From Schmidtea polychroa (Eukaryota), in assembly GCA_044892525.1 (NCBI GenBank), contig CM097887.1, positions 10,974,001 through 11,038,000 on the forward strand: DNA of 64,000 bases, read 5' to 3'. The notes beneath the pieces are model-generated. The model was not told where the DNA came from, searched no databases, and was given only the letters and a program-made list of their open reading frames with translations. Shown piece by piece: positions 1 through 46,032 of the stretch; the first letter of the stretch is position 1; every line of letters starts with the position of its first letter. Both the position numbers and the translations under genes were made by a program.

Positions 1-2
1 CA

Positions 3-3000
3 TTGGCTATAATACAAGCTATCAAACACTTCCGATATTTACTATGGGGACATGAGATATGCATAACCACGGATCATCAACCATTAGTGTGGTTAGGGCA
101 ACATAAAGAAGCGTCCAGTAGACTGATGCGATGGGCCATGCAATTGCAAGAATACTCCCCATTTATAAAATTCAAAGCGGGAAGAGCAAATGCCAACGCC
201 GATTGTATGTCAAGATTTATTTTCCCAGATTTGGTGGATTCAGAAATGCAACGCATATGCTTGATAGTAGCGGAAGATTTGGATTTCTGTCAATTACGAA
301 AGGACCAACAAGAGGACGCGGAATTAAAACAAATTATCGATTATGTAAAAACCGGAAAGACAGATGTATATGCGAAAGACCAAAAATTAAAAGAACATAT
401 GGATAAACACCGACACCGATATATTATAGAGAAAGATTGGTTGCTGATAATGGATGGGGAAAAACGATTAATGTGTATACCGGAAAACCGACGAAAAGAG
501 TTACTAACGCAATATCACGATGGGAGATTGGGAGGACATATGTCATCGAAAAAGACGTTAGCAAGAATGAAACAGAAATATTTTTGGCCTACGTTAACTG
601 AAGATGTAACCGAATGGGTAAAAAATTGTCTAACTTGTGCAACCAGGAAGAATACTGGATCGAAATGGAAAGCACCTTTAACGCCAATGCCAGTACCAAT
701 AGAACCAATGACAATGATATCCATGGACGTAGTTGGTCCACTACCAGAGTCAGATAAAGGAAACGTTTACATTCTAGTGATCACAGACTTTCTTACGAAA
801 TTCCCAGAAGCATTCGCGATGCCAGACCAAAAAGCTAAAACAATCGCAAAAATTTTGGTAGAAGAGATATGTTGCCGATATGGAACACCAAAACAAATCT
901 TAACCGATCAGGGGACTAATTTTATGAGTGAGATAATGAGCGAAGTAACAAACTACTTCAAAATAGCAAAACTAAGAACATCTCCATACCACCCTCAAAC
1001 CAATGGGATGACGGAAAGATTTAATGGAACACTTATACAAATGTTATCAAACTACGTTGACCGTCACCAACGAGATTGGGACGAATATATAAACCTATGT
1101 CTTATGGCGTACAGAATGTCGATTCACGCATCAACGAAAATGAGCCCATTCAAATTAATGTACGGAAGAGAATGTAATATGCCAATGGACCTGGAATACC
1201 AACCACCGATATCGCAGTATATGGAGATCGATGATTATGTTACGAAATTCAAGGAAAGAATGCAAGAAATTTGGGAAACTGCGGGATTAAATATCAAGTT
1301 CTACCAGGAAAGTTATAAAGATTTACACGATCGAAAGAAAAACGTGAAGCAACATACGTTCCAAACAGGTGATTGGGTAATGATAGAAACCCCGGAATTA
1401 ATTCCAGGAACCACAAAAAAGTTACAACGCAACGGAAAAGGACCATATGAGATCCTATTCGTAGGCGAAACTAATGTAAGAGTGAAATTGGTAAATAACC
1501 CCTTTACCAGACCAATATACGTAAACGTGGCACGATGCAAATCAATTCCGAAAACAGCCACTAGTCAACCAGAAGGCCGTACATTAACCACACGTTCGCA
1601 AACCTACCGAATGAACATGATGCAACAACTCGCAGAACCGATCACTGGACGATTAGGTATCCAACCATCAGAAGCGGAAAAGATTGTAAAAGAGGTAAAA
1701 ATTAGAATACCTGGATGGGCAAAAGATCGATTAGATTTCGAAATATTAGGAGGATTATTGACGATGATCGAGAACTATGCAAATAGAGAAAGGACACACC
1801 CATTATTGCGAGTAGTCAAAAGCCAATGGCCAATATTATTTACAATAACAGATCATTACGGAGACACACCATTACACAAACTCATGAAAGTAGGTAACAA
1901 CGAGCAAATACTAGAAACAATAGAAGCATTTCACGACTGCAAGCGATCAACAGAACAAACAAACAACCAAGGTTACACACCATTAATGATAGCCGCAAAC
2001 AGAGGCAAAACAAAAGACATTATAACCGCATTACTCGATACCGGATCGAAAATAACTACACAAGACCACGAGCGGAAAAACGCTCTACATCATGCTATCG
2101 AAGGGAGAAGTACCGAGGCGTTCACGTCATTGATGGAACTACTATCATATGAGGACAATCGGGAAGTCGGAAACATGTATGATGGATTATTAACAGCGAC
2201 CAAAGAAAAACTGACAACAATTACCGGAATATTAATTACATGGAGAAATCCAATTCAAAACGATTATATGATCAACGTAAACGAAGCGTTCACGAGAGGA
2301 GAGAACACGCTGATGAGAGAAGCTATGAAAGGACATCATTTATTCGAAATCCCGAATCAATTACTAGAACGAGGGATAAAATTCACAAATCACAAAGACG
2401 AACAGTTAACAAAAAAGCGAATCGACACATTCGAAAAATCACTATTCCAATTTACTAACCAAGTACGAAATAAATATTGGGAAACGGTAAGTGTGTTACA
2501 TATGATGGACACAATGAATAACATCCGCGAGAATTACATGGATATTATCCAAATACTTACAGCAGAGGAACGAATCAATAATCCAAACGGAAAGAAAACG
2601 AAAATAAGGTATGAGAAATCCAGGGAATCAAAGTCAACAACGAACCAAACGGTCACAAACAACGTCATCGAAACCAAATCAATGAGTATAGATCAAGAGG
2701 CAATAATACGCAAAGCAAAAGAAGTGTTCTTTGAGGAAATGTTAGAGCTGCCAGACGAAATAATATTGTCCAAAATAATAAAAGCCGTACACACATACGC
2801 AAGAGATCAAACCACGGGTTTAGATATCGGGAAAATCAAAACCTTCTTGCCTCGAGCATTTACGATGGTAACAAAGGATTCCAGAACACCTCTACAACAG
2901 GCAATACTAGCTGCAAAAGAGAATAGAGCAATAACGATCATGAGAATCCTTGGGGAGATGGGCGAGGAAACCAACACGAAAAATGAACAAGGTGAAACCG

Positions 3001-4829
3001 CCATGATGTATGCAGCTATAACGAAAATACACCCAAAAACACTCCACATCCTACATCAATCAGGATCGAAACTAGACGAAAAGTCCAATGAAGGAAATTC
3101 CACCTTGGACTGGGCAACCATACAGCCAAACTTAGAAATGATCAGATTTATTTGCAAAAATGCGACAAAAGAAGAAGTTGAAAATATGTGCAAAAACACA
3201 TCTCAGTTTCAATGGAATACGGTACGGAAAAATCTAGAAGCAATGAAATTATTATTAACCTGGAGAGTACCACAAAATAATAAATATGCGATAAATGTAA
3301 ACGAATTCTACGAAAACGGAGAAAATGCGATGGTAAAGAATACCCTAACTAAGGGGGGGACGCCTAAAATAATTTTAATAGTATTAAATAGAGAAGACCT
3401 AAAATTCACGCAAAATCAGAACGAGCAACAACGAATTGGGAAACATCGTCGTATGCAATTGAGAGAGTTAGTTAAAGAATGGAATAGAAAGAGGCATGCT
3501 GCAACGGGCAGGAAGGAGTTTGAATTCGAAGCAAAATTAGCAAGAAACAGAGTGCTAACAGCATATCGCAGATTATTGAACGATATAAATGTCGAGGACG
3601 ACATTTTAAACGACAGCGGGGGAGATAAACACGATGACAATAACGGAAAAGGCCGAAAGGAGGATAAAGAGAAAAGAGAACCGGAGGAGGGTAAACCGGA
3701 AAACAAGGATTCGGATACGAAAAGAGAGGGAAACAGCCCGGGAACTAAGACCAAAGAGGAGGAAAAATCGAATAATGGAAAACAGAGGGTATGCCTACCT
3801 TTCACTAACAAAGAAATAGAGACAAATATGATATTAATGATAATTATGCTTACCATGATAGAGTTAGTAACAGCTCATGGAGGGACGAGGACGATAAAAG
3901 AAACCAAAGAAGCGGAGAATCAAGATAGCAAAGAGGACGAACTAAAACAAGAAAAGAAAAAGCAAGCACAAGAGCAGCAGTGGGATTTAAAGGAAGAATG
4001 GGACTTAAAGGAAAGGTGCATACTAGGAAGATGCATGTCTAGAGCGTATCAGAAACTAGTACTGATAAATGAGGACACAGAACCAATAACAGAAGTAAGA
4101 ATACAAGAAGCATACCGAAACCGAGACGGGAAAAGAATAACGAACGTTAAAGGAAAAGAGGTACACCTAGGAAAAGGTGGCGAAGTAGTAATAACGCAGC
4201 TCCAACCAAGAAAAGAGCACAAAGTCTGTATTTCAAGATTGGGACCGGGTGAGAGATGCCATCAATATGTGACGCAGCAGCAGCCCCCGAAGGAATATAC
4301 GGTTTGTATCTGGAGAAACGAATCAAAAAGAGAATGCCGACGATACCCGGGGAAAAGAGGAAAGAAAAGGAAAAACCACGACGAAAAGGACGAAGGAGGA
4401 AAGCACAAGAAAACCGGCGAGGAAGCTCAGGACAACTATGTTTCGGAGGAAGAGATGGAAAAAATACAAAAGATGGCAAAGGAGGGTATGAACGAGGAAA
4501 TAGCAAGAATACGGGAAATGATGAAAGGAAATGGCAAAAGAGGGAACGAGAAAAGTACAGAAGCAATATCAACATTAACAAACCAGGAAAAACCAGAGAG
4601 TATAAGCGTGAAGCAGATGATGTGGATCAGTGGGATAATAATAACAGGGGCATTCCTAATCATAACGGGGGGAACAATAAAAATAATTAAGGATAAACGA
4701 CATCGCGGAGAACTAGAGATGACTCGAATCAGAAATTTCCAACATCGAGTGAAACGACCAAGTGATATCAAACAAGAACAGTGGGTGGAGGCCTGGAACG
4801 CTCAGCGCCCTCCAAACTCACGTATATAG
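3..4829 (+). CDS. Partial Pol polyprotein: RNase H C-terminus, integrase (HHCC, DDE, GPY), two ankyrin-repeat modules and a type-I membrane-like tail in one open frame
   Basis: TDHQPL (RNaseH); YHDGRLGGH...CLTC zinc finger; SMDVVGP / LTDQG / TERFNGT catalytic motifs; GPY at ~1440; ankyrin-like GDTPLH, GYTPLMIAA, NALHHA (~1850-2110) and RTPLQQA, GETAMMYAA, GNSTLDWA (~2880-3120); hydrophobic MILMIIMLTMIELVTA (~3828-3875) and MMWISGIIITGAFLIITGGTI (~4617-4680). Confidence 0.9.
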   Translation: MAIIQAIKHFRYLLWGHEICITTDHQPLVWLGQHKEASSRLMRWAMQLQEYSPFIKFKAGRANANADCMSRFIFPDLVDSEMQRICLIVAEDLDFCQLRKDQQEDAELKQIIDYVKTGKTDVYAKDQKLKEHMDKHRHRYIIEKDWLLIMDGEKRLMCIPENRRKELLTQYHDGRLGGHMSSKKTLARMKQKYFWPTLTEDVTEWVKNCLTCATRKNTGSKWKAPLTPMPVPIEPMTMISMDVVGPLPESDKGNVYILVITDFLTKFPEAFAMPDQKAKTIAKILVEEICCRYGTPKQILTDQGTNFMSEIMSEVTNYFKIAKLRTSPYHPQTNGMTERFNGTLIQMLSNYVDRHQRDWDEYINLCLMAYRMSIHASTKMSPFKLMYGRECNMPMDLEYQPPISQYMEIDDYVTKFKERMQEIWETAGLNIKFYQESYKDLHDRKKNVKQHTFQTGDWVMIETPELIPGTTKKLQRNGKGPYEILFVGETNVRVKLVNNPFTRPIYVNVARCKSIPKTATSQPEGRTLTTRSQTYRMNMMQQLAEPITGRLGIQPSEAEKIVKEVKIRIPGWAKDRLDFEILGGLLTMIENYANRERTHPLLRVVKSQWPILFTITDHYGDTPLHKLMKVGNNEQILETIEAFHDCKRSTEQTNNQGYTPLMIAANRGKTKDIITALLDTGSKITTQDHERKNALHHAIEGRSTEAFTSLMELLSYEDNREVGNMYDGLLTATKEKLTTITGILITWRNPIQNDYMINVNEAFTRGENTLMREAMKGHHLFEIPNQLLERGIKFTNHKDEQLTKKRIDTFEKSLFQFTNQVRNKYWETVSVLHMMDTMNNIRENYMDIIQILTAEERINNPNGKKTKIRYEKSRESKSTTNQTVTNNVIETKSMSIDQEAIIRKAKEVFFEEMLELPDEIILSKIIKAVHTYARDQTTGLDIGKIKTFLPRAFTMVTKDSRTPLQQAILAAKENRAITIMRILGEMGEETNTKNEQGETAMMYAAITKIHPKTLHILHQSGSKLDEKSNEGNSTLDWATIQPNLEMIRFICKNATKEEVENMCKNTSQFQWNTVRKNLEAMKLLLTWRVPQNNKYAINVNEFYENGENAMVKNTLTKGGTPKIILIVLNREDLKFTQNQNEQQRIGKHRRMQLRELVKEWNRKRHAATGRKEFEFEAKLARNRVLTAYRRLLNDINVEDDILNDSGGDKHDDNNGKGRKEDKEKREPEEGKPENKDSDTKREGNSPGTKTKEEEKSNNGKQRVCLPFTNKEIETNMILMIIMLTMIELVTAHGGTRTIKETKEAENQDSKEDELKQEKKKQAQEQQWDLKEEWDLKERCILGRCMSRAYQKLVLINEDTEPITEVRIQEAYRNRDGKRITNVKGKEVHLGKGGEVVITQLQPRKEHKVCISRLGPGERCHQYVTQQQPPKEYTVCIWRNESKRECRRYPGKRGKKRKNHDEKDEGGKHKKTGEEAQDNYVSEEEMEKIQKMAKEGMNEEIARIREMMKGNGKRGNEKSTEAISTLTNQEKPESISVKQMMWISGIIITGAFLIITGGTIKIIKDKRHRGELEMTRIRNFQHRVKRPSDIKQEQWVEAWNAQRPPNSRI

Positions 4830-4989
4830 AAAGGAATATGACTGTATATAATTGTAAAAAGTAAGTATATCTTATGTATATAACAGTATTATATCTTTAT
4901 ATAAGCGCGGTATCAATATTATACAATAACGGGAATCATAAAATAAAATTAAATTTACATAAGAGTTGAAAAGAGTATATAAATTAGGA

Positions 4990-5349
4990 ATGGATCAAGG
5001 AAATAACGAAATGAACCACAATACAGTAACTGAAGAATTATGGAAGCAACAATGTGCCGTATTAGCACAATTAGTGTCCAATTTGCAAGAACAAGGACTG
5101 ACGATGCACAGAAACCTGATCGAGAGTATGAACAGAGGATTTAGTTATTTGAAGATAATTGAAGACCAGAGGTTAAAAATCGAACAAATGCAAAGAGAGA
5201 TAGAGAGGATAACCCAATATAGCCGTCGACAGGAAATTGAAATAGACAGAATGATGGAGGAAGCAGAACAGACAGAAATAGAAGACTGGTCGGAATGGCT
5301 AATGAATAGAGAGGAAAGCGGACACGAAGCCGACTCTTCCGAACCCTAA
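4990..5349 (+). CDS. Small coiled-coil protein, cargo ORF1 of element A
   Basis: Open frame 4966..5349; first ATG at 4990; heptad-like E/Q/L/I-rich central part and acidic C-terminus. Confidence 0.6.
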   Translation: MDQGNNEMNHNTVTEELWKQQCAVLAQLVSNLQEQGLTMHRNLIESMNRGFSYLKIIEDQRLKIEQMQREIERITQYSRRQEIEIDRMMEEAEQTEIEDWSEWLMNREESGHEADSSEP

Positions 5350-5434
5350 ACCAAACCTAGCTCAAAATGTAAATAATTGTAAATAAAATATCGAACCTGT
5401 ATCGATAAGAACTATTTGTACATATAATTATAGA

Positions 5435-6823
5435 ATGGATAAACGACAAAGAGAAGAGTTCAGAGAGATTGTCGAGCAAGTCCGAAAATCTACAACGATC
5501 AGAATACACAAACATGTTATGTGCGGAATATGTGAAAAGTTGTTAAAGGAACCTCACCAAACGCAATGTGGATGCAGAGTATGTAAAGAATGTATCAGTG
5601 AAGCAATAAAGAATAGACCACAAAGGTGCCCGGTGTGTAAAGAGACACTAATATCGAGTTTAGAAGACACTAACGAGGATAAAGCCGCAGTGAAAGACAT
5701 GTTAAACACCAACCTGGGATGCAAAAATGCCCCATGCGAATGGAAAGGAGTAATATGGAAGGTAGTACAACATATGGGAGAATGTATGTACAGAATTGGC
5801 CAGTGTGAAAGGTGCCATAAAACCATTCGAGCAAGCGAAGAAAAAGAGCATCAAAGGCAGTGTGAGGAGAGATTGGAAAGATGTGAACACTGTGGAGAAA
5901 TAGATACGTGGATAAATCTCACCCTCAAACATCACAATGTCCAAGAGGAGAGAGTATGTGCGGAGTTCAGTGGGGAATGCCCAAACGGATGTAACCAAGG
6001 GGAAACAATGAAGGTGGCACAGCATCTAAGGGAATGCGAAAAGAAAAGAATGACATGTGTACTAGGTAGATGGGGTTGTCAGAAATTACTACACCGAGGT
6101 GAGTTACCACATCATTTAGTAGAAAATGCTTCAACTCACGCAGAAATGTGGTCGACTGCGTTACAAGAAAGCGAAGAGAAAGTAAAACAAATGGAGATAG
6201 AGATAACATCGTTGAAAGTGTTAGTCAAAGAACTACTAGAAGAAAGGAAAGCGTTCGAAGAAGCCCGAGCAAACATAAAGATGCAAATAAACCGAACAGA
6301 AATTAGTAATAATCAGGCCAAGGAGCTACATCAGAAAATACGGGAAATAAATCTAAATGAGATAACCCCAACAGCACCCTACATATGGAAAATAACGGGA
6401 GTAAAAGAAAGAATACGAAAAGCAAAAACCGGAGAAGAGACAAGAATAACAAGTCCTACATTCCATTCTTGGAAAAATGGGTACAAAATGAAAATGAAGA
6501 TATATCCCAACGGGGACGGAACCGGATTAGATACGCACTTTTCGATTTTCTTTCTGTTATGTAAAGGAGAATACGACGAAATATTAGAATGGCCGTTCCA
6601 GGCAAAAATCGATATTACTCTGATGAGCAACCAAAGTATACATGAGCAAAGCTTCAAAACAACGGGGAATCAAATAGCTTACCAGAGGCCCCTCAACGAA
6701 GAAGGATCAGCAACAGGAGCACCTACGTTCATCTCACAACAAAGAGTAGAAGATATGGCGAGAAATGATACCATATATATCAAGATGACCGTGAGGAAAG
6801 AGGAGAAGGGTAGAACGGAATAA
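5435..6823 (+). CDS. TRAF: Intronless TNF receptor-associated factor (TRAF2/3/5-like): RING, TRAF zinc fingers, coiled coil, MATH domain; cargo ORF2 of element A
   Basis: CGIC-x11-CGCRVC..C-x10-CPVC RING; C-x3-C...H..C zinc fingers (CKNAPCEWKG...HMGEC); MATH motifs YIWKI, SPTF...GYKM...YPNGDGTG..THFSIFF...GEYDEILEWPF..K, DTIYIK. The specific paralog cannot be assigned by eye. Confidence 0.95.
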   Translation: MDKRQREEFREIVEQVRKSTTIRIHKHVMCGICEKLLKEPHQTQCGCRVCKECISEAIKNRPQRCPVCKETLISSLEDTNEDKAAVKDMLNTNLGCKNAPCEWKGVIWKVVQHMGECMYRIGQCERCHKTIRASEEKEHQRQCEERLERCEHCGEIDTWINLTLKHHNVQEERVCAEFSGECPNGCNQGETMKVAQHLRECEKKRMTCVLGRWGCQKLLHRGELPHHLVENASTHAEMWSTALQESEEKVKQMEIEITSLKVLVKELLEERKAFEEARANIKMQINRTEISNNQAKELHQKIREINLNEITPTAPYIWKITGVKERIRKAKTGEETRITSPTFHSWKNGYKMKMKIYPNGDGTGLDTHFSIFFLLCKGEYDEILEWPFQAKIDITLMSNQSIHEQSFKTTGNQIAYQRPLNEEGSATGAPTFISQQRVEDMARNDTIYIKMTVRKEEKGRTE

Positions 6824-7016
6824 CCAATCGAATAATGTTGTATATAATAATCTGTATATATCGGTGTATATAACTAATAAAATATTATATAATAATAGTA
6901 TGAAAACCCTAAATACGAAAACCCAAAAATGATGCGAAAATTTCCCAAGAAACAGTAAATAATGAATAAATTCCTTTTTCATAATAAAAAGATTAATCGA
7001 TGTCTATGATTTAGAG

Positions 7017-8072
7017 ATGACACAAGAGAAAATAACCGAAACTGCGATAGACCCAACCAATGTCAACAAGACACAAATTCCCCGAGAACATAACAAAAAA
7101 TGGAACAAAGTAATGTTCCAACTAACTAATCTCACCCGAAATCACATCGAAGAAACTAGAGAAGATGAGAATAGTCAATACCAATGGTTAATACACAACT
7201 TAAGAGCGGAAGCAGAAGCATGCAAAAGAGCATCAAAATGGGCGTCACTAGAAAATACCCGCCAAGAAGCACACAGACACTACTTAAAGCAGCTAGTGCA
7301 GGAAGCGAGAAAGAGACTTACCGATGAGAACACCAAGCGCGAAGCGGAAAAGCAAATAGAAGACAGGAAAATGATGCACTTAGTGGCAGAAGCGAGAAAA
7401 TGGAAAAGACAAAACAGAGAAATGAAAAAAGAGATGAAAGAATTGCCCATGAGACTCGGATACGAAAGCGAACAAGGTAAATGGGAGGAGAATTTAATAA
7501 TAAAGGAAGAATTGAAAAGGTTGAGAAAGGTCGCCGCCCGAAGCCAAACCTGGCAAACAAAGGCTATGGAGTTTGAGCGACATTTGGCAATGAAGTGCGA
7601 CATAAGAGAGCACGAGAATGCCGCAATGGAAGAGATGATAACCCAACAAGCGGGACGGGTTGTGGAATTAGTAAATCAGGTAGAAGAGATGAAAAGAGAC
7701 CTTAATGGATTACAAGGATCGCTGGAACAAAGAAACATGGTCCTAGCGGGAAAAAACAGAAAATTAGAAAACGAAAGGAAAATGTACACCGAAAATATTA
7801 AAAACTTAGAAATAGAAATTGAAAAATGGAAGGGCGACGAGAAAATCAAAGCCCTAGACAAACAGATAGAGGCGAAAGATGAAGAGACAAGGTATCTCAC
7901 CTATCTGCTCGACGAGGAATTGAATATCACTCGAGCTCTAAGAGACGAAGTTAGTGAATTGAGAGCTCAAATTCCCCAATATTACCTACCATACGACCCT
8001 ATTGCGATACAGTTACATTCCGCGGTCGATAGTGATGAAGGTTATGTAGGCCAGGAGGAAACCTTCGTATGA
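7017..8072 (+). CDS. Long coiled-coil protein, cargo ORF3 of element A
   Basis: 351-aa uninterrupted ORF, E/K/R/L-rich heptad pattern, acidic C-terminal tail; no recognisable family. Confidence 0.7.
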   Translation: MTQEKITETAIDPTNVNKTQIPREHNKKWNKVMFQLTNLTRNHIEETREDENSQYQWLIHNLRAEAEACKRASKWASLENTRQEAHRHYLKQLVQEARKRLTDENTKREAEKQIEDRKMMHLVAEARKWKRQNREMKKEMKELPMRLGYESEQGKWEENLIIKEELKRLRKVAARSQTWQTKAMEFERHLAMKCDIREHENAAMEEMITQQAGRVVELVNQVEEMKRDLNGLQGSLEQRNMVLAGKNRKLENERKMYTENIKNLEIEIEKWKGDEKIKALDKQIEAKDEETRYLTYLLDEELNITRALRDEVSELRAQIPQYYLPYDPIAIQLHSAVDSDEGYVGQEETFV

Positions 8073-8240
8073 GGGTGGATGAAAAGATGAAAAACTAAAA
8101 ACCGGGACGTATATCCCAAACAAAAAAATTAAAGTATTGTAAAAGTATTCAAGGGACTGTAACCCAAACTATTAAATTTTATATCAATGTATACGTATAA
8201 GTCGCACTATAGCGCACCATTAACTGTACATATTATAGAT

Positions 8241-8939
8241 ATGAAAATCGAGGAAATGATAGAAATTATGAGCGACGTAGAAGAGGGAGAGATTGAGGCA
8301 GAAACAACAGAAACACAAACGCTAAAGGCCGAGTTACGGGAAGAGAAATACGAAAACGGGAGATTAATAAACAAATACCTGGAGGACCGGAAAATGATAA
8401 AGGTGTTAAAGAAAGAGTGCGAAGCGTTGGGGGAAATAAAAAGAGAAACGGAAGAGGAAAATGAATGGCTACACGAACAAAGGAAGCGAGGGAAAAACTG
8501 GGAAAAGATAGCGGAAGAGCTATGGAAAGAGAGGGCAAGCTTCAAAGCAAAGGAGGTAATCCAAGACTACTGGAAAACTGAGGCGAAGGAGCGCCAAACA
8601 GCTATAAATAAATTAAAACGACAACTAGAAGAAAACCAACGGGAAAGTAAAGAAATGAGGAAGTGGGTCCGCAAATATAGAGAAATAGAAAGAAAACATC
8701 AACAACAAAATTACCTGCAAGAAAACGAACAAGATCTCCTACAAATCGAGCTAAAAAGAAACCTTGAAAAGAAAAGGGAAGAAATTAGACGCTTGGAAAA
8801 AGAAATTAGACATCTAAAGAGAGAAGCCCGTGAAAAAGACCGACAATTGGAAATGCTGCCCGAGTTAAGACACAGGGTAATTAAAGCAGAGTCCACCTTG
8901 ATGAGAATCGGCGAAAATAATCCAAATCAGAACCATTAA
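8241..8939 (+). CDS. Coiled-coil protein, cargo ORF4 of element A
   Basis: Open frame 8187..8939; ATG at 8241 preferred because it follows a TAG acceptor-like motif and the charged helical composition starts there. Confidence 0.65.
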   Translation: MKIEEMIEIMSDVEEGEIEAETTETQTLKAELREEKYENGRLINKYLEDRKMIKVLKKECEALGEIKRETEEENEWLHEQRKRGKNWEKIAEELWKERASFKAKEVIQDYWKTEAKERQTAINKLKRQLEENQRESKEMRKWVRKYREIERKHQQQNYLQENEQDLLQIELKRNLEKKREEIRRLEKEIRHLKREAREKDRQLEMLPELRHRVIKAESTLMRIGENNPNQNH

Positions 8940-8994
8940 ATTAAGGGTCATTAAAACCAATTGTAAATAAACATAATGAATGTATAATAGTATC

Positions 8995-9636
8995 ATGCGA
9001 GGCGAGATGATGATAACAATGATGGTATTGATGATTCTGATGGAGAGCAAACAAATAGACGCCCAACCGAAAATCGTACGAGATTACCGAAATCAAAATC
9101 AAGAACCTAAACAAGAATCCAGTCAATGCACATACCCGATGACCGTAAAAACCCATATCATCCAAACCATTCAATCAACCCGATCACACATCAACAACAT
9201 CCAAACAATGTGTAAAAAGAATCCCATTTGTAAAATGATAAACAAACAAATCCTCGAACAAATTCAACAATTCGACCAGTTGGAACAACAAATGCAACAA
9301 GAGAATTTTGGAAATCTGGTAGAAAAGCCAAAAATACCTCCCGAAATCAATGACACCCATTATCTCATATATGTGGTGATCGCAGAAACCCTCCTCCTAT
9401 GTCTACCAATATTCATGAAAATTTACGAAGTTCGAAATAGATGTAGAGTCTCGACATCAATAAGAGTAACCTCGAACCAAAATCCTCAAGAAGTGCCCCT
9501 GACAAATCTTAACCGACCTCGAACCCCGAGTAATCAACCAATCCAGCCGAAATCTAATAGTCAGACCTATCTCAACATCAATACCCAAACCAACCAACAG
9601 CCGCCAGCAGAAGCATCAATGGTTAACAGTTCATAA
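8995..9636 (+). CDS. Predicted small type-I membrane protein, cargo ORF5 of element A
   Basis: Signal-like MMITMMVLMILMESKQIDA; Q-rich ectodomain with three Cys; TM-like YLIYVVIAETLLLCLPIFM; P/Q/N/S-rich tail. Confidence 0.6.
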   Translation: MRGEMMITMMVLMILMESKQIDAQPKIVRDYRNQNQEPKQESSQCTYPMTVKTHIIQTIQSTRSHINNIQTMCKKNPICKMINKQILEQIQQFDQLEQQMQQENFGNLVEKPKIPPEINDTHYLIYVVIAETLLLCLPIFMKIYEVRNRCRVSTSIRVTSNQNPQEVPLTNLNRPRTPSNQPIQPKSNSQTYLNINTQTNQQPPAEASMVNSS

Positions 9637-9742
9637 ACTCTAATTCAAACATTTGTGTTATTATATGTGGAAACTTTTATTGTATGTACAAACTATCACC
9701 TTAAGTGATACTTGCTTGGTCTTGCTTTGACCTTGATCTTAC

Positions 9743-9748
9743 AATAAA
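9743..9748 (+). terminator. Candidate polyadenylation signal after the cargo cassette
   Basis: AATAAA about 105 nt after the last stop codon, followed by a GT/T-rich tract (tttttatcattgttgtataattttccgtgttcgtgtt). Confidence 0.45.
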
Positions 9749-10177
9749 ATTTTTATCATTGTTGTATAATTTTCCGTGTTCGTGTTATATTTTTTTTGAA
9801 TGAATGAATTAAGTTAATTATGCAATTGCGGGACGCAATTTTGATGGGTCCCCGAGTGATTTGTTGGGCTGAGTCGAAAATTTAATCGTTGAAAAATAGG
9901 AAAGTAGGGAAGTAGAACATTAAGAAAAATAATAATAAAATAAATAAAATCAGAAATAAAATAGAATAAGATATAAGGAAAATAATAAGTAAGACATAAG
10001 AATTAAAACAAAAAATAAAATTAAGAAAAGATTAAAATAGAACAAGTTGACAAATAAATAAAGAGGAATTCAAGAAATAATAAGGAAATTAAGGAAATAA
10101 ATAGAAAAACATATTAAAAATAAAGAAAATAAGGAAAAAACAACCTAAAAACAAGAAAATTATATTAAATTAATAGA

Positions 10178-10260
10178 AATAAGCGGTACTCAACTCTGAT
10201 TGGTCCGCACAAATAAGAATTTGATATATATACAACTACCAAAAACATTAAATTTACTGT
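10178..10260 (+). promoter_or_regulatory. LTR Pol II promoter: conserved box, inverted CCAAT, TATA, initiator-like site
   Basis: AATAAGCGGTACTCAA (10178-10193) and GATTGGTCCGC are shared with 63452-63481; TATATA at ~10225; Inr-like TTACT at ~10254-10258. Confidence 0.65.
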
Positions 10261-10756
10261 TAACCCCGAGCATTTCATAGGTAAGAAAAATGTTTACTGT
10301 TGTTTACGGTTAACCCCGAGCATTTCATAGACATCTACAACTCACGGAGACTTATTTCAAGGATCAGCAATACAAGTAGAGCAACAGTTAATTCGAAAAA
10401 CTTCACAGCAATTCGAAATCAGTCACAGCAATCGACATTCAACGAACCATCATCAGACTAATTTGGAACGACTAACGTTAATTTTCCGATTCAGCCTAAT
10501 TCCATAGTAAGGGATTTTTATTTATGATATTGTTTTTCGAAGTTAATAGTAAATATGTATATTTAATGAGCAATTAAACTTTTAAATTTAACCAGACTCT
10601 CTTTTCATTTGGTCCTGAATAACGATTTTGATAAAGTAAATAATTTAAATGTTTAAAAGTATTTATTGGTAACAGGTGAACTCTTACATAATTTTTATGG
10701 ATATTTATTTTGAAGTGATAGTTTCATGATTTCTAATATTAACGAGAAACGTGGCG

Positions 10757-10824
10757 TTGAGATACTCCATGTCATGGTGTGAGGTGCCTTCGGGAGCTCA
10801 GCCGGTGGACATGGAGTATTTCAA
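10757..10824 (+). other. Long RNA hairpin capped by a cUUCGg tetraloop inside the LTR
   Basis: TTGAGATACTCCATGTC (10757-10773) pairs with GACATGGAGTATTTCAA (10808-10824), 17 bp with one G-U; inner stem TGAG/CTCA and CC-TTCG-GG. Confidence 0.6.
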
Positions 10825-12734
10825 TCACGCAGCTAGATTGGGCCGAAATGTGAAGGCTTCTTCACGGGTCCAATTGCTGAAGGACTTAAAATCTGTCAGA
10901 GTACCGAAATATAGACCGAAAGGAAACCTTCTGAAAGTTTCGAAAATAGGATATGTGCTTCACAGCGACTGAGGGAGTTCTCATATTAACTCTGTATTGT
11001 CCAGAGTCGTCTTACAAGACATTCATGCCACTTCTGTCTATAAATCCGAACTTACCATGTGGGGGAAAATACCATTAAACATCCATCGCTGGTTTTCTAA
11101 CATATCGAGAAGTTGAAATTGCATTCGGTAGATTTTTGAAAAAGTAACTCTAATTTAGGTCATCTCTTTCAGATGCGACATCCAAATCTTAGCATATGAT
11201 GAGGAATTTACAATAAAGGAAAAGTAAAACATAAAACCACAATAATACTGTATTCAATCACATATATTAACAAAATCTGGTAATACCCATTGAATAATTT
11301 TCATGCTGTTGCGTCGAAATATCCACTACTGAAATATGCTTCATAGAGTCTAGTTGGCTGGTTCGTAGAGATCTCCCATCGTTCAAAAGCATCCAATATT
11401 GAGGAAATTACGAGTCGTAGTAAATAAATCCGACATCATAAGCTCAGATGGGAATCGACACGCGATGTAACATTTGCAGTTCGCTCAGTACGGTTGATAG
11501 TTACAGATAAAATTTCCATCGAATAGGCACCCATACATACAGACATACTGCTAACATAACTATGAGTAGCGTCATCCGGTCAGAAATATGCATGAGAAAC
11601 AGCAGAATCATTCCGAGTGCCTCTCACCGCAGGGAATGCCGCCATGTGTCACCCTCTCTAGGATTCTTAGTGTGTGAGTAGTAATCAGTGGTCCTATTAG
11701 ATAATGCTGACATGAGATGTGACTTCCAGATGACTGACTCTTAAATTTCACTACTGATAAAGGCCATTCGTACCACTAAAAAGATAAGCCAAATAACCAG
11801 TAACCGACTACTAAGATAAGGGACTCTCTAAAGTGCACCCATTAAAGATAATTTTGCTTAAATTAAATATGCTAAATAAAAATCGAAATTGTTGAAGGGG
11901 TATTTTAATTAATAATCGAAAATTCAAACCAAACTTTATAACTAAACCATAGGAAGTTTTACCTAAGTGTTGTAGAGGTTTATCGTAATTCTAATTAGAT
12001 GTTACAAATAATAGTAGTAGCCTTCGAGCCAAATTTAAATTAACTAAAGTATCTACAGGAATTTTTGGGTTATAAAATAGCTAGTAATATTGTAGTTAAA
12101 TTTCTCATATTCCCTGTAAATGACGTATTGTAATAGAAAACTAAATCCGATAACAAATTATTATGTAATTACAATATTTTTACGATGCTATATTTCTACG
12201 ACGATATCACCGTATGGTATGGATAAGGGGTAATCATAAAATAGTGACGTATAGTTTATACGAAATTACGAGTTGTTACTTATTCCGCTACTTGAGGTAA
12301 GGGTGCAAGTTTTTACTAGTTGCATTTGGTCCAAAAACCTTATTTTGCATTAGAATAACAACAAATAATCAGCGAAATTTAAACGAAGTGTAGTATAGTG
12401 TATTTGTAATGAAATAGGGTTATTCGCTCCGGCATGAATAAATCCGTAAATTGCCTTTATGTGCGATAGATAGAAATCCAACTCGAACGCGATAGACGAA
12501 AATTAAAATTTTTACAAATAATTTGCATTCGTCAGGGAAGCAATCAGGGCGTTGGGGAATAATTTTCTGTAAAGGATACGTAAAATATTAGTAATCAAGG
12601 GTGAAGGGAGGGATCCTGTTTCATCGACTCGTCTTGTTTTCTTCCAGCACTAAGTATCCAATAGCGAATAAACCGTATATCTGATCCGAAATTTTTGGAT
12701 ATAGTCATCATAGTTTTCTTCTTTAGCCATCCAT

Positions 12735-13487
12735 ATGTTATCAAACCACAAATCAGCTCTACGTCCCTGCTTCTCCTGCTCAGATAAAAATGCAGTGATT
12801 AAAGATCTTCAAGCCCAGATCGGTCGATATAAACGAAAAATCGACGAACTGGAAGGGACATGGTTTAGTCCCGCTCGGATGAAGGAGATCCAAAAGAAGC
12901 TCGATCGTAGCGAGCATTGCCGGGACGCGCTAATATCTGAGAGCCGTGCCCAAAGAAGTCTAATCAGAGAACAATCCGAGGCACTGCATAAGGTTTACGT
13001 GCAGGCGGCTACAACCCGAAAAATAGTGCAGATTCCCATCCGAGAGGCCGATGACATCTTTCCGCCTCATCACAACCTTTCCTCGAATCCATCTCCACCG
13101 TTCAAGAGACCGTGCCAAGACTGCGTCGAAAACGAATTGTCCCCCAAGCGACCAGATGTTGTCGTCACGGGTACCAGTAAGCCCCCCACTGCTAGTCCAT
13201 CTGTATCAGTCACCCCTCTGCAAGTGGCATCTTCAAGCAAACCCAAGCGCAAACAACTCTCTCGTGCAGAGCGCAAGAAGAGACAGCGCGAACGCGCCAC
13301 TACCAAGCCAAACATCCCATCAATAGAGGACTCAACCAACGGTGGCAACTCTCACGTGTCCATCGACCTAACAACGGGACCCTCAGCACGAATCATATCA
13401 GCCGCTGGCGTAACGTGGGAAGAGAACGCTTCCGAGTTTTTTAACCTCGACGAATTATTCGCCGACGCTGAATGGGAGAAACAATAG
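12735..13487 (+). CDS. 250-aa LTR-internal ORF (coiled coil, basic cluster, acidic-aromatic C-terminus; putative regulatory protein)
   Basis: Uninterrupted ORF in a GC-richer block; polypyrimidine acceptor ttttcttctttag (AG 12725-12726) just before ATG; KPKRKQLSRAERKKRQRER; C-terminal EFFNLDELFADAEWEKQ; AATAAA at 13611. Confidence 0.65.
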   Translation: MLSNHKSALRPCFSCSDKNAVIKDLQAQIGRYKRKIDELEGTWFSPARMKEIQKKLDRSEHCRDALISESRAQRSLIREQSEALHKVYVQAATTRKIVQIPIREADDIFPPHHNLSSNPSPPFKRPCQDCVENELSPKRPDVVVTGTSKPPTASPSVSVTPLQVASSSKPKRKQLSRAERKKRQRERATTKPNIPSIEDSTNGGNSHVSIDLTTGPSARIISAAGVTWEENASEFFNLDELFADAEWEKQ

Positions 13488-15769
13488 AACCCCAGTGGCG
13501 GTCAGGACGAAGAACAAGGATCCGATCTATGTTGATTATGATGTTTTCTCTTCTTTCGACAAACATTAGTAAAGTGTACAGCTGAATCCTTGTGTCATAA
13601 CGTTGAAATTAATAAATCTTGTTGTCTTACACGTTTTCGTTCATGAATAATTAGACTTTAATTAAGTGGGTTGAGTAGAGAACCCGCCAGATCTAGTGAG
13701 AAATTCCCAATTTGTATTCAGCGAATCCTGATAAGTGGTTGTGTAAGGAAAAGGACGTAAGCCCTTCTAACGGCAGTCGTGAATGGGAAGTCGAGGCCTC
13801 AGCAAGGAGTAGTTTTAAGGCAGAAGCTCACCTGCTTGCTGGCGTCTCGCCTGCATAGTGCAGTACCAACGTGAAGTGATTCACGGGCACTATGTTGGAA
13901 GAAAGTTATGTGGGGTTTCACTCCAGGTTGACAAATCGGTGGCACCTTTTATTCGAGATGGACAATCAACCCTTAGACCCGTCAACATGGTAGAGTGGTC
14001 AGCCGAGGTGTAACCCCAACAGTAAGTATAAATAGCCAATTTCTTATACAAAAAGAAAAAGACATATAAAAGCGTGATCATGCACAGAAAGGATAGTAAA
14101 GGAAGGTATAATGGAAGCAGTATTAGAAAATGCCAAAAGCAATTGCGAAAGGAAAGAATTCGGAAATCCGAGAAAAATCAATAAATTGTAAAATCATCGA
14201 AATCGAATTGGGAAAATGGGACAAGTATAGATTAGCTAATGGTTAACAAGATGATGATTAGGGATTTATCAGAAAATGGTTAGGAAGGGTCAAAAAGCAT
14301 TAAAAATGAATAAAAACAGAAAACATTAATTAATTAATTAATTGGCTAATAGAAAACCCGATCTAATGGGAAACCCGAGCCAATGGAGAACCCGAGATAT
14401 GAAGGAAACCCGAGCTGGGTAAACAAGAAGAAAAGTAAACAGAATGAAGATTTGGGCCCATTAGCTTGACACAATGATTAAGTGGAAAAGAGCAAGGAGA
14501 AGATAATGCGTGTAGAAAGGCCGGAAGGGCCATTAATTATCTTTGTTCGTTGGACCATTATGACTGACAGCCGAAACAGATATGTGGAAGCAAATGTCAA
14601 GTGAGAGATTGGCTCGGCAATAACCATTTGTCATCCCGATTTCGAAGAGTATATAAGGAAGGGGAAAATCAGAGCAAATCGGCATTTTGCCTCAGCTAGG
14701 GTTAGAATAAATCAAGCTTAGGAAAAGGTAAAAACGAATTTAGGAGATTAGGGAAAAATAAGATATAGAATAGGAATACGGAAAGGTGAAAAGAATCAAA
14801 TCAAACAGAAAAAGAGGAAAACGTGGGTCAAGAGAATCTAAAGAAATAAAAGGTGAATATTATCTTTTGTCAAAGCATCAACGCCGTGCTGAGAATCGGT
14901 CAAACGTAACTTTGACTATTGATTGTAAACTGTTGAGAAAAGATTGTAAATTTTGTTATTCCAATATACGTTGGGTCGTTATGGTTTTGATTTATAGGAC
15001 ACGAGGATTCAGAAGGTACCGACTTAAATTAACTGAAAACCCAACAAACAAAACAATTATTTTTACATATTACATTTTACATTTTTTACATTTTAAAAGT
15101 GAAAAAACGTGACAGTGACAGACTAATAACGTGGGTAAGAAGAAAACATAAAATCGCTCGCCACGAACAAAAAAATTAAACTTCCGGTGACTTTAAGAAA
15201 AAATAAATCTTGATTATCATTATTTTAGAGAAATCAAATAAAAGTTAAAACTTCAAAAACTGCACTTTTTTCTTGACAGAAAGACAGGAAATTTACATCT
15301 CTCTGGTCATAGTCAACCGGGAGACGGGAGACAAAAGCTGATTTCCAGAGACTCCCAGCCAAAACGGGAAAGTTGGCAAGCCTAGAAAGTACATTTGGTA
15401 AATTTACTCAATTGTTATTTTTCAAAAATTGAACTCGTATATAAAACCTTCAATTCTGAGAAATTGTGATATAAAGAAAATATGTTTTATTATTTGATGG
15501 ATTTTGGTTGATTTAGCCAAAAGGACATGCGGAGTCATGAAATGAAATTCTACCCGAACCTTTGAATATTAACCCAACAATTATAAACTGAAACATTTAA
15601 ATAAATTCCTTTAAAAATTTTCAAGTTCACTTAGCATTTTATATACTAAAAAGTAATCCTTAAAATATAAATTGTTTTAAAATTGTTGAAGTATTGTACA
15701 CCAAGAAACGCTTTTCATTTTTTTCAGTTTTTCATATTAATAAATTATATGTCTCTTAAGTCTTCTAAT

Positions 15770-22341: not shown

Positions 22342-22687
22342 GTTAGAATAATCTCAATTGTGCTACATAGTAATGTTTAATATTTTTATTTAATATAAAA
22401 GTTTTGACAAAGTTTCATGGCAGTGTAAATGTAAATGATCTCCAATTAAATATTTTACCATCTCAGAATGGTAACTAGTGAAATTAATTTTGTAAATTAG
22501 ACGTGTGATCAATTGAACTGTGGAGTTCATTATTTATTTTAATGTTTTTAATTTAATAAGAATTTTTAAAAACACGGTGGAATTATTTAGAATAAAAGTA
22601 ATATATTTTTCATAAACACAAACATTTCAATGGATTTGTCAATGTGGAACAGTTGTGAAATAAGAATATTCTTCATAATCACACATG

Positions 22688-23513
22688 TCCAATACAATCA
22701 CTAATATATCCAATACAATCACCAATATATCCAATACAATCACCAATATATCCAATACAATCACCAATATATCCAATACAATCACCAATATATCCAATAC
22801 AATCACCAATATATCCAATACAATCACTAATATGTCCAATACAATCACTAATATATCAAATACAATCACTAATATATCCAATACAATCACATATATCCAA
22901 TACAATCACTAATATGTCCAATACAATCACTAATATATCAAATACAATCACTAATATATCCAATACAATCACTAATATATCCAATACAATCACTAATATG
23001 TCCAATACAATCACTAATATATCCAATACAATCACCAATATATCCAATACAATCACCAATATATCCAATACAATCACTAATATGTCCAATACAATCACTA
23101 ATATATCCAATACAATCACCAATATATCCAATACAATCACCAATATATCCAATACAATCACCAATATATCCAATACAATCACCAATATATCCAATACAAT
23201 CACCAATATATCCAATACAATCACTAATATGTCCAATACAATCACTAATATATCCAATACAATCACCAATATATCCAATACAATCACCAATATATCCAAT
23301 ACAATCACTAATATGTCCAATACAATCACTAATATATCCAATACAATCACCAATATATCCAATACAATCACCAATATATCCAATACAATCACCAATATAT
23401 CCAATACAATCACCAATATATCCAATACAATCACCAATATATCCAATACAATCACTAATATGTCCAATACAATCACTAATATATCAAATACAATCACTAA
23501 TATATCCAATACA
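22688..23513. repeat. 21-bp minisatellite, ~39 units (TCCAATACAATCACYAATATR)
   Basis: Directly visible tandem array; one 19-bp unit near 22890. Confidence 0.97.
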
Positions 23514-34700: not shown

Positions 34701-37107
34701 ATTTTGAGTTAATTTTCTAGAAAATTGAATATATTGAAACTGGAGCCGATGTAATCGGACTCCTGTCGGCTGAGAATTGCCGATATCAATTCTCATCATT
34801 TTCCCTCTCCTTACCAATCAGAAGAAAGGAGGGAAGAAAGATGGACTATTACATATATATTTTATTAATTATTTATTTATTTATTTTTTTTATTTTTTTT
34901 TTACCCAACACAATAATTTTATTCAAGACCAATACAAGTACACTTGTTGATTACACTCTTTATTGAACAATTACAATCTTTAATAACTCTTTGATCTGCA
35001 CTTTTCAATACTACAATAAATCTCACGTAGGGATAATCTTCCAAAGGGAGATGTCCCTTTCTGGTACGTTCGATTTCTAAATATCTAGTTATCACAACTG
35101 CTAAATTCTTTTACTCACTCGTTTAATCCTACTAACTTTTCTTCGACCAACTGGCAATTATGTTTCTTTGCTGGCTCCTTTTGTACTTGACCCGTCAATT
35201 GATTTTAATTCGTCAAGCCCTTCGTATCCAATTTCCCGGGCTTCCTCCTATCTCTTTCTCTCATTGTCCTAATTTAATTTTCGTCGGCCGATCTAATTTC
35301 ACCTTTGATTGACCATTTAGGCTCTCCCATGACGCTAGGGCTTTCTATTATCTCGGGCTTCCCATTATCTCGGGTTTTTCATTATCTCGGGTTTCTTATT
35401 AGCTCGGGTTCTCCATTAGCTCGGGTTTCCCATTAGCTTGAGCTTCCCATTAGTTAATTAATTTTTAATTAATTTTTGTTTTTTGTAATTTATTCTTTCT
35501 AGGGACCCCCCATTGATTTTATTTTATTATATTTGAACTCGTCTCATAATTTGGCATCCGCCCATACCAGTTTCCCCCGAAATTATTCCATTTTTGTTTT
35601 TTTGATTATTTTAATTAATCTCTTTGTATTTTAAATTTATTATTATGAATTTGGTGTTTTCATTGATTTTCACCTCAATTTTGTATCTCTTTTATTGAAC
35701 CCCAACATATCTCCCGCTTTAATGTAGATTCGTCCTCGAATCTGTACATTTCTTATAGTTTAAAATAATAATAATAATAGTAATAATACTAATAACAATA
35801 ACAATAATAATAATAACAATAATAATAATCACAATAATTACAACAATAATGATAATAGTAATTAATGTTTTTTCAATTTATTTTTGTTAAAATTTAATTA
35901 TTTAGGAAAAATTTTTTTTTTAATTTAAGAAATAATTTAATTATTTTTCTTTACTTAATTCGCCGATCAACTGGAGCCGATGTAAATTGTTTTCAGTAAA
36001 ATTATTTTAGACATTTTGTGTAGTTAATCTAAATTTATAAAATATCTAAATTTATAAAATTTCTACTGATCACATTTTCCATTTTAAAGATCAATCAAAT
36101 ATCAAAATTATTTTGAGTTAATTTTCTAGAAAATTGAATATATTGAAACTGGAGCCGATGTAATCGGACTCCTGTCGGCTGAGAATTTCCGATATCAATT
36201 CTCATCATTTTCCCTCTCCTTACCAATCAGAAGAAAGGAGGGAAGAAAGATGGACTATTATATATATATATATTTTTAATTATTTATTTATTTATTTTTT
36301 TTTTACCCAACACAATAATTTTATTCAAGACCAATACAAGTACACTTGTTGATTACACTCTTTATTGAACAATTACAATCTTTAATAACTCTTTGATCTG
36401 CACTTTTCAATACTACAATAAATCTCACGTAGGGATAATCTTCCAAAGGGAGATGTCCCTTTCTGGTACGTTCGATTTCTAAATATCTAGTTATCACAAC
36501 TGCTAAATTCTTTTACTCACCCGTTTAATCCTACTAACTTTTCTTCGACCAACTGGCAATTATGTTTCTTTGCTGGTTCCTTTTATACTTGACCCGTCAA
36601 TTGATTTTAATTCGTCAAGCCCTTCGTATCCAATTTCCCGGGCTTCCTCCTATCTCTTTCTCTCATTGTCCTGATTTAATTTTCGTCGGCCGATCTAATT
36701 TCCCCTTTGATTGACCATTTAGGCTCTCCCATGACGCTAGGGCTTTCTATTATCTCGGGCTTCCCATTATCTCGGGTTTTTCATTATCTCGGGTTTCTTA
36801 TTATCTCGGGTTCCCCATTAGCTCGGGTTCTCCATTAGCTCGGGCTTCCCATTAGTTAATTAATTTTTAATTAATTTTTGTTTTTTGTAATTTATTCTTT
36901 CTAAAGACCCCCCATTGATTTTATTTTATTATATTTTATTTTATTATATTTTGAACTCATAATTTGGCATCCGCCCATACCAGTTTTCCATTTTTGTTTT
37001 TTTGATTATTTTAATTAATCTCTTTGTATTTTAAATTTATTATTATGAATTTGGTGTTTTCATTGATTTTCACCTCAATTTTGTATCTCTTTTATTGAAC
37101 CCCAACA
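34701..37107 (-). mobile_element. Non-coding two-LTR element (TRIM-like) related to the LTR family of elements A and B: ~1-kb direct repeats 34701-35707 and 36110-37107
   Basis: Both repeats begin TGTTGGGG on the minus strand; the 35707 copy is preceded by a PPT (AAAGCGGGAGATA) and TCGAGGACGAA; both carry the 17-bp CTAATGGGAAACCCGAG array; the internal spacer is ~400 bp with (AAT)n. Confidence 0.7.
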
Positions 37108-37139
37108 TTTTTGTCTTCCAATTTTGATAATCATATTTT

Positions 37140-44622: not shown

Positions 44623-45115
44623 ATTTTAATATTATCAACAAATAAGATAAATTTATTCGTATGGGGTTTATTTTATTATAATGTCACCACGAAACAATAT
44701 AATTGCATAAATAAATAATTTAGTTCACATCAAATTGTTAATAATCAAATATAAGTTATTATCAATATGGTAATGTCACATAATCCCATAGATATTGTCA
44801 TTATTGATTATTGTCCACATGTTTATTTATCCTGTGCCTATTTGTTCCTATTGTGTAATATTTAAGTTTCAAAATCTTTAATGTTCTTCCATCTTCTAAC
44901 ACAAGTAAAATAACATAAATTATACAATTATATTTTTCTTTGAAAATATCGTAGATTTTCAATTTTTAATTATAAGTTAAAATATTGTAAGTTTTTACCA
45001 TTTAGCCTGATAGGCATATATATAAATATCTGGGCCTAGATTTACACTGCTCCAATTTGTGTCTTTTATTCAATTTGCATCGACATTTTAAAATTATTCT
45101 ATCAAAAAATAAATG

Positions 45116-45778: not shown

Positions 45779-46032
45779 AAATACCAGAAACAAAAAGACG
45801 AGAAATGATAAAGGAAACACATTTTTATTATGTCTCACAGGATTAGAAAAACTAATGAAATATATTCGGAATAATTTTGATTTGGAAAATTTGCTAAATG
45901 AAATAAGAACGACTATTTCAATATGTGAAGCATGTCAGAAACCACAAGGTTCTAACTACAAAGTCAAAAGAAAAACTCAAGTAATTCAAGCTAGATAACT
46001 GATGAAGAAAGATTACACATAACGTACAGATT

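Follow-up and report, generated by a model that had tools for sequence, protein, structure and literature searches.

Burro elements are abundant in planarian genomes, and the question addressed here is how five to eight separate open reading frames (ORFs) are expressed from a single 30-kb retroelement. It is raised by a stretch of 64,000 nucleotides of Schmidtea polychroa (contig CM097887.1, positions 10,974,001 to 11,038,000 of the forward strand), hereafter the window, in which a long polyprotein frame is followed by five ORFs separated by short spacers. Together these ORFs make up the accessory cassette of a Gypsy element of the Burro type, 30.5 kb long. The spacers are likely to be switch points, at which a leader from the long terminal repeat (LTR) would be spliced in cis to an AG standing just before each ATG, and at which a motif in the 3' untranslated region (3' UTR) of the preceding gene would bind the host protein Pumilio. 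The grammar of these spacers, stop-UGUAHAUA-hexamer-AG-ATG, leads to base-level predictions for splice junctions, 3' ends and a named host regulator, Pumilio.

Burro/GYPSM1 are giant planarian Gypsy-like LTR elements (PMC6431247). The window copy belongs to a family, designated A, whose cassette start is present in 40 or more copies that are 99-100% identical (of 373 candidates, 40 were scored) in a genome of 781 Mb with four large contigs. The element is about 30.5 kb in total, with LTRs of 4160 bp that are 100% identical (the 3' LTR at 9862..14021, its twin about 26.3 kb upstream) and a 4-bp target-site duplication; all its features with window coordinates lie on the + strand. Its polyprotein is one open frame of 4732 codons, starting about 9.4 kb upstream of the window and ending at 4829, in which Pfam placed, in this order, gag (52-145), CCHC (287), a fusion glycoprotein (1868-2207), protease (PR, 2397), reverse transcriptase (RT, 2710) and RNase H (RH, 2931); 3' of RNase H, in the part within the window (1..4829), follow integrase (IN), ankyrin repeats and a C-terminal membrane segment. 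The env-like fusion domain between gag and PR-RT-RH-IN, the size of about 30 kb or more with multi-kb LTRs, and the MATH/TRAF and ankyrin accessory domains (the ORF starting at 5435 being TRAF-like) are characters of Burro/GYPSM1. The BIR-RING (B-IAP) cargo of Burro1 was not found, there being no BIR family among the nine family A proteins or protein parts scanned with Pfam; family B, presented below, has an additional RING-ending ORF which family A lacks.

Two further families allowed the cassette to be compared. Family B was found through a TRAF search (150 scored of 1551 candidates), and its cargo proteins are about 25-33% identical to those of family A; family C (locus L141), with cargo proteins 26-78% identical, was met only after the position windows used below had been fixed and thus serves as a hold-out. 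Over the three families together, cargo protein identity ranges from about 25 to 78%. One family B and one family C cassette lie on opposite strands within 23 kb (G000:C3:87714000-87737000; L140, L141). In six stretches around other env-bearing families no accessory cassette was found downstream, and protein searches with accessory ORFs 3 and 2 returned nothing at the thresholds used.

The observation that an AG directly precedes each accessory ATG is real, and the original prediction is confirmed in part. Its five TAG/ATG pairs are present in the window: TAG at 4985-4987 at the end of spacer 1 (4830..4989), 5431-5433 in spacer 2 (5350..5434), 7012-7014 in spacer 3 (6824..7016), 8236-8238 in spacer 4 (8073..8240) and 8988-8990 in spacer 5 (8940..8994), the AG ending in each case at the last-named base and the gaps to the ATG being 2, 1, 2, 2 and 4 nt. 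The ORFs that follow are accessory ORF 1 (4990..5349, 119 aa, no Pfam match, with orthologues in families B and C), ORF 2 (5435..6823, 462 aa, TRAF-like by Pfam, with RING and MATH), ORF 3 (7017..8072, 351 aa, no Pfam match above cut-off), ORF 4 (8241..8939, 232 aa counted from the ATG after the AG) and ORF 5 (8995..9636, 213 aa, with a hydrophobic N-terminus and a second hydrophobic stretch). The chance frequency, which had been proposed as a check, was computed by mononucleotide shuffles of each spacer: the probability of a TAG 0-4 nt before the ATG is 0.07-0.11 per spacer, with a product of 7e-6, and among the other ATGs in window 1-9861 such a TAG is found at 10 of 252 (15 of 257 overall). 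The joint value is flattering, because in ORFs 4 and 5 earlier in-frame ATGs (8187 and 8980) precede the one behind the AG and make the choice of start post hoc; the family B and C orthologues of these two ORFs do start after an AG. The pattern is also wider than first noted, since the 5' RING ORF, the LTR ORF and the polyprotein are likewise preceded by acceptor-like AGs. For the LTR ORF (250 aa, ATG at 12735; 12709..13487 with the sequence ahead of the ATG; AATAAA at 13611) this is a pyrimidine-rich acceptor-like sequence ending at 12726. At the polyprotein, in families A and B, TTTTAG is followed by 500-550 ATG-free bases before the ATG, in flanks that otherwise hold about 18 ATG per kb; in two copies (L021 425-976, L065 6191-6691) the polyprotein frame is open for about 100 codons ahead of the first Met.

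The AGs proved to be kept well beyond the window copy. Over the three families an AG stands 0-4 nt before the ATG in 16/16 spacers: 11/11 in families A and B (circular-permutation null 0/20000) and 5/5 in the hold-out family C, which was not used for setting the windows (null 16/20000). All six accessory ORFs of family B start 0-3 nt after TAG or AAG, and ORF 3 of family C has AAG at gap 0 and TAG at gap 6. Among ten family B copies none of the 12 AG columns varies, vs 179 of the 528 other spacer columns. In family A, where 20 other copies were compared (7 at 90.6-94.3% and 13 at 98.2-99.3%), the only AG change is at ORF 1, where TAG-GA has become TAAG-A in 7/7 divergent copies, an AG (as AAG) remaining one base on; at ORF 4, TAG reads CAG in 3/6 divergent copies, probably through one event, and at ORF 3 a second AG is lost in one copy and the first kept. 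Two more divergent copies retain TAG-AA-ATG at the TRAF ORF. The AG is thus retained in other copies and families, as the original prediction had asked to be checked, and varies only within acceptor rules, so that its reading of these sites as 3' splice acceptors gains good support from the comparison; very probably they are real acceptors. Putative host acceptors, read from frame boundaries in host TRAF genes, are likewise AT-rich, some ending in AAG, and the missing pyrimidine tract is therefore no obstacle. These host TRAF/MATH genes form large clusters (G000 C2, about 3-5 Mb and 105-124 Mb; L025-L054), and many of the 1551 genome-wide MATH candidates lie inside Burro copies.

It might be supposed that the pattern arose by chance in AT-rich spacers and was spread by the recent amplification of one family; the copies are indeed related, and windows and start codons were picked after the data had been seen. 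Recurrence in two further families, of which one served as a hold-out and whose cargo proteins are about 25-78% identical, and AG nulls of 0-16/20000 largely refute this explanation, which can hardly be credited.

If the AGs are acceptors, a donor has to be found, and a candidate lies in the LTR itself. In the 3' LTR, from which it is described here although its twin in the 5' LTR would be the one at work, the layout comprises a TATA-like box at 10225, a candidate leader exon 1 of 28 nt (about 10253-10280), a candidate first intron of 50 nt beginning GTAAGA and ending in AG (10281..10330), whose tail copies exon 1, a candidate leader exon 2 of 176 nt with no ATG (10331..10506), and a candidate major splice donor, ATA|GTAAGG, backed by a U-rich tract (10507..10530), 645 nt into the 4160-bp LTR. 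The sequence of the exon 1 end occurs 275 times in the genome, mostly in pairs 45-50 nt apart, and the first intron measures 45-50 nt in other copies. In 30 loci (L110-L139), representing 8 distinct variants, exon 1 always begins alike, and what varies is the beginning of the intron tail, where an extra G may or may not be present. Reverse transcriptase is known to copy the cap, and this variation is what the copying of a capped, already spliced RNA end would leave; the junction variants at the first LTR intron look like start-site and cap footprints. One locus, L122, has a single exon 1 match in both LTRs and was considered as splicing proof through precise loss of the first intron, but was set aside, since a repeat-to-repeat deletion gives the identical product. 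The second donor is kept in 8/8 LTR variants although exon 2 falls as low as 115/182 identical columns, and exon 2 has no ATG in any of them. Family C shows the same exon-intron-exon-donor layout in a different sequence, with a 51-nt intron, a 156-nt ATG-free exon and the donor CAAG|GTATGC; its first intron also has a duplicated tail (L141, reverse, 6655-6705) of sequence unrelated to family A. Taken over the families, the U-rich tract behind the donor is found in all three, and an ATG-free leader before it in two (A and C).

At the level of sequence, two features of splicing from a common leader are present: a donor in the 5' leader (8/8 variants, matched in B and C) and an acceptor ahead of the ORFs in 16/16 spacers. 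The original prediction had left it open whether these acceptors act in cis or in trans. In flatworms, cis- and trans-splicing often share acceptors, spliced leader (SL) trans-splicing operates in planarians (PMC12582326), and Cer1 of C. elegans is a precedent for an SL1-spliced retroelement mRNA (PMC3315495). The cassette could accordingly be read as an SL-resolved operon, whose precursor would be cut at each poly(A) site and receive the host SL at the AG, possibly beside cis-splicing at the first sites. The layout is that of a flatworm operon, with same-strand genes no more than 300 nt apart, spacers of 55-220 nt and a hexamer ahead of the AG in 12/16. Flatworm SLs end in AUG (PMC12582326), yet the gap between AG and ATG is a multiple of three at only 7/21 sites, as expected by chance, and at 0/7 in family A, frame not being a strict defining feature of such operons. 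Moreover, under trans-splicing the conserved upstream donor would stay unpaired, and the distance from predicted cleavage to AG is about 20-35 nt, against a median of 99 bp in Schistosoma mansoni operons (PMC12582326). LTR donors with an ATG-free leader, together with the lack of frame bias, favour the cis route; the trans part of the original proposal is counted against by frame and donors, and an SL operon appears improbable. Probably, then, one common LTR leader is spliced in cis to all the ORFs.

The spacers also carry candidate 3' ends for the upstream genes. Hexamers are found at 4942 (AATAAA) in spacer 1, 5382 (AATAAA) in spacer 2, 6876, 6965 and 6983 (AATAAA) in spacer 3, 8128 and 8171 (ATTAAA) in spacer 4 and 8966 (AATAAA) in spacer 5. 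That a spacer contains AATAAA at all is no more than chance would give (P 0.29-0.97 per spacer); what stands out is its position, a hexamer lying 40-62 nt before the ATG in 9/11 spacers of families A and B (7/20000) and in 12/16 overall. With cleavage 10-30 nt downstream of the signal (PMC5068929), the RNA is predicted to be cut in the region where the following acceptor would have its branch point. One more candidate poly(A) site, strong in appearance, follows the last ORF at 9743..9800, upstream of the 3' LTR, where AATAAA is followed by a GU/U-rich tract. Between it and the LTR, directly 5' of the latter, a conserved hairpin-like block (AATTGCGGG..CGCAATTTT..GGG.CCC.GAG) was observed in all three families (window 9818-9861; L064 about 9590-9628; L141, reverse, about 6040-6075), in the place where a polypurine tract is expected.

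The other half of the spacer grammar is the motif that the original prediction had taken, as TGTA..ATA..TAG, for a context shared by all five acceptors. Beside the AG it is perfect at ORFs 2 and 4 and not perfect at the other three of the five sites: ORF 3 has TGTC in place of TGTA, and the ORF 1 context is GAGTATATA in the window copy but GTGTATATA in 20/20 other copies. Counted as TGTAHATA, 8 of the 10 copies in the window lie 33-178 nt before the ATG. The ten are placed as follows: at 4843 (13 nt after the stop) and 4875 in spacer 1; 5368 (18 nt), 5378 and 5417 in spacer 2; 6839 (15 nt), 6853 and 6865 in spacer 3; and 8962 (22 nt) in spacer 5, where TGTAAATA is fused to the AATAAA; spacer 4 has no stop-proximal copy and one at 8225. 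A TGTAHATA 13-22 nt after the upstream stop was found in 9/11 spacers of families A and B (0/20000 circular permutations) and in 4/5 spacers of the hold-out (63/20000), making 13/16 overall, the window scored being 12-24 nt after the stop; the misses are spacer 4 of family A, its family C orthologue and a one-base variant in family B. A TGTA 12-19 nt before the ATG is found in 7/11 spacers of families A and B (153/20000). The claim that the motif is part of the acceptor is therefore mostly unsupported, and its anchoring to the upstream stop codon fits a 3'-UTR element.

The motif is strongly enriched, with 17 copies in the 1374 nt that make up the 11 A and B spacers vs a mean of 1.2 and a maximum of 5 in 1000 dinucleotide shuffles, and strand-biased (17 sense vs 1 antisense). 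No copy occurs in pol (4.7 kb), in the cargo ORFs, in the LTR or in the 5' region; the rest of the window has 0.2 per kb, and of 29 host TRAF stops one is followed by the motif. Among copies, motif columns vary less than the remaining spacer (4/70 vs 81/503; 6/49 vs 179/528). The 8-mer matches UGUAHAUA, the Pumilio element, and the eight repeats of the host PUF gene carry the triplets S-R-Q, N-Y-Q, C-R-Q, N-H-Q, C-R-Q, N-Y-Q, S-N-E and N-Y-Q, the canonical recognition code matching this sequence. Two extra copies of one Pumilio exon were noticed (C4:88412964 and C4:88553481) about 13 Mb from the full gene (C4:75.19-75.21 Mb). As known from microRNA work, sites in a 3' UTR become effective from about 15 nt behind the stop onwards. 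UGUANAUA is a Pumilio response element, and planarians need Pumilio to maintain their neoblasts (PMC5855632); UGUANAUA in the cassette is found in untranslated sequence, above chance and conserved, as in a Pumilio target. On these grounds there is about an even chance that Pumilio is the reader of the 8-mer. One side observation concerns the spacer between ORFs 3 and 4 of family B (L064 7290-7340; L059, L061, L062, L066), where an A-run lies right behind the stop-proximal TGTAAATA; its length varies and reaches about 50 nt, and it may be a poly(A) tail that was captured or else a tract formed by slippage.

For this step another reader may be considered: with the acceptors real, UGUAHAUA could act in nuclear 3'-end formation instead of through Pumilio repression, enhancing weak internal poly(A) sites in the manner of a CFIm-type UGUA, or it could shield the upstream stops of long read-through RNAs against nonsense-mediated decay. 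In many cases motif and hexamer run together as TGTAAATAAA, plain TGTA is enriched too (39 in the 11 spacers vs about 7 expected), and the motif occurs only after ORFs with another ORF behind. Against this, a planarian 3P-seq study reported no UGUA enrichment upstream of poly(A) signals and no CFIm59/68 (PMC5068929), and the conserved unit in the cassette is the full 8-mer, with its fifth base free, whose position follows the stop codon and not the hexamer. Such a role is possible if doubtful.

Taken in order, the proposed mechanism starts from what is seen in the sequence, namely a TATA-like box, one or more short exons and a candidate GT donor in the LTR, with an acceptor-like AG before every ORF, the polyprotein included. 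Judging from copy variation, the RNA would start at exon 1 and the first short intron would be spliced. The second donor would be joined to the weak, AT-rich, host-style acceptors, giving single-gene mRNAs; since the leader has no AUG, each acceptor must directly precede its own ATG, with the frame unconstrained. The hexamer 40-62 nt before the next ATG would end the upstream mRNA, and as the predicted cleavage zone coincides in part with the branch-point region of the following acceptor, a given molecule could either be ended at gene k or be spliced to gene k+1; the genomic RNA would have to skip both the internal poly(A) sites and splicing. Finally, UGUAHAUA, just beyond the reach of the terminating ribosome, may, in a prediction about as apt to hold as to fail, recruit Pumilio and tune mRNA stability or translation.

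The transcripts themselves were sought in four sequencing runs viewed as contigs, whose RNA status is uncertain and in which the LTR donor lies outside the stretch covered. A joint in run X4 resuming at 5434, right after the AG, was not counted, as GT is missing on its 5' side and the spacer is entirely different in some copies (L142, L143). For a loose-end motif of run X6 the genome contained no match. Processed retrocopies were sought as the exon end of donor 2 followed by non-GT, with 0 matches vs 65 with GT for the one LTR variant queried, an absence that is uninformative. From the acceptor side, ORF 4 gave 0 matches and ORF 2 gave 2, both of them divergent genomic copies keeping the TAG.

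Several results weigh against the account of cis-splicing, internal poly(A) sites and Pumilio given above. No junction read was found at an acceptor, nor was any of the 24 loose ends listed (353 more lay beyond the listing), and two contigs, about 90% alike and from a run only guessed to be RNA, bridge the AGs ending at 8238 and 8990 unspliced; this bridging neither confirms nor refutes splicing, because genomic RNA or DNA would do likewise. In family B the leader candidate is one short exon ending ATA|GTAAGC, which has an ATG close to where it is predicted to begin and lacks the duplicated intron. Homology among the three families means that their spacers are not independent, and it was on families A and B that the position windows were set; in the hold-out the poly(A) hexamer window is weak (3/5, 783/20000) and AG-proximal TGTA is not enriched (2/5). 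The background columns of family B include the A-run with its indels, which inflates the AG and motif contrast. Further, no TGTAHATA was found behind the last ORF, the RING ORF or the LTR ORF, an absence for which simple repression through the 3' UTR gives no reason; the poly(A) sites of these ORFs look strong in family A.

The unspliced bridging, together with the fact that no spliced RNA was seen, also speaks for an explanation without splicing, in which each spacer would be an internal promoter (TATATAA-like or forkhead-like) or a signal for ribosome re-initiation, with the AG as start-codon context. There is a TATA-like word inside TGTATATAA, and TGTAAATA contains a forkhead-like word. Between AG and ATG lie 0 to 8 nt, and the AG is preceded by T, C or A, which is acceptor-like and unlike a start context; moreover, upstream ATGs stand in several spacers (seven in spacer 3), the motif is strand-biased, and the LTR donors would have no use. 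This explanation is very unlikely.

Other repeats were met in passing. The 5' untranslated region of the element (L022 9137-9720) has about 9 tandem copies of a unit of about 64 nt. Elsewhere in the window, direct-repeat pairs at 45113-52275 and 34701-37108 (6.7 kb and 1.4 kb apart) look like more LTR elements and share a 108-nt segment with 14313-14420, and an array of a 21-nt unit, with 42 overlapping copies listed, is found at 22515-23400.

The proposal can be set beside several known systems. Complex retroviruses such as HIV and foamy viruses make subgenomic mRNAs from one leader through weak acceptors. The element would resemble them in having one LTR promoter, a major donor, a weak acceptor ahead of each accessory gene and an unspliced genomic RNA. 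It differs in that the family A candidate donor lies inside the LTR and not downstream of the primer-binding site, so that the spliced RNAs would lack that site; the polyprotein itself appears to need a spliced mRNA, and each ORF has its own candidate poly(A) site. The adenovirus major late unit joins a spliced AUG-free leader to one or another terminal exon, and its internal poly(A) sites compete with the acceptors further on; here the likeness would extend to the leader, the terminal exons and the competition between poly(A) site and acceptor; adenovirus, however, is a DNA virus needing no full-length RNA genome, whereas the full-length Burro RNA must pass all internal sites. With the SL operons of flatworms and C. 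elegans (PMC12582326, PMC3315495) the cassette shares short intercistronic spacers and a poly(A) signal ahead of the acceptor, and is set apart by a candidate cis donor upstream, the lack of frame bias to the SL AUG and a very short distance from poly(A) signal to acceptor.

A tentative extension of these comparisons, rather doubtful as it stands, would make Burro a virus-like programme run from one LTR leader, with a Pumilio module just beyond the terminating ribosome at every cistron end; the timing of the cargo proteins (TRAF, IAP-like and others) would then be set by Pumilio, and the full-length RNA, which bears about ten of the sites, could act in neoblasts as a decoy in the manner of NORAD, which is a multi-element Pumilio decoy. 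If true, a host stem-cell RNA-binding protein could regulate the messages of the element. Burro1 cargo has been reported to protect stem cells (as cited in PMC13465017), and piwi RNAi lifts the repression of Burro (PMC8532177). The literature search returned no description of Burro splicing or of Pumilio sites in Burro, the main Burro1 account (Lee et al. 2026) being outside its scope.

Compared with Burro/GYPSM1 (PMC6431247), the element agrees in its length of about 30 kb, its 4-kb LTRs, a single polyprotein with the fusion glycoprotein between gag and protease, ankyrin repeats, a TRAF/MATH accessory and several accessory ORFs, and differs in that the family A proteins scanned are without a BIR match and the TRAF ORF lies downstream of the polyprotein. 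Compared with Pumilio response elements (PMC5855632), it has the same 8-mer, in many copies per RNA and in untranslated sequence; the differences are that a retroelement carries the sites, that there is one set for each cistron and that the distance to the stop is fixed at 13-22 nt, with binding predicted here from sequence. The proposed splicing design is a variant of the complex-virus scheme, and the stop-anchored, Pumilio-type module is the more surprising part.

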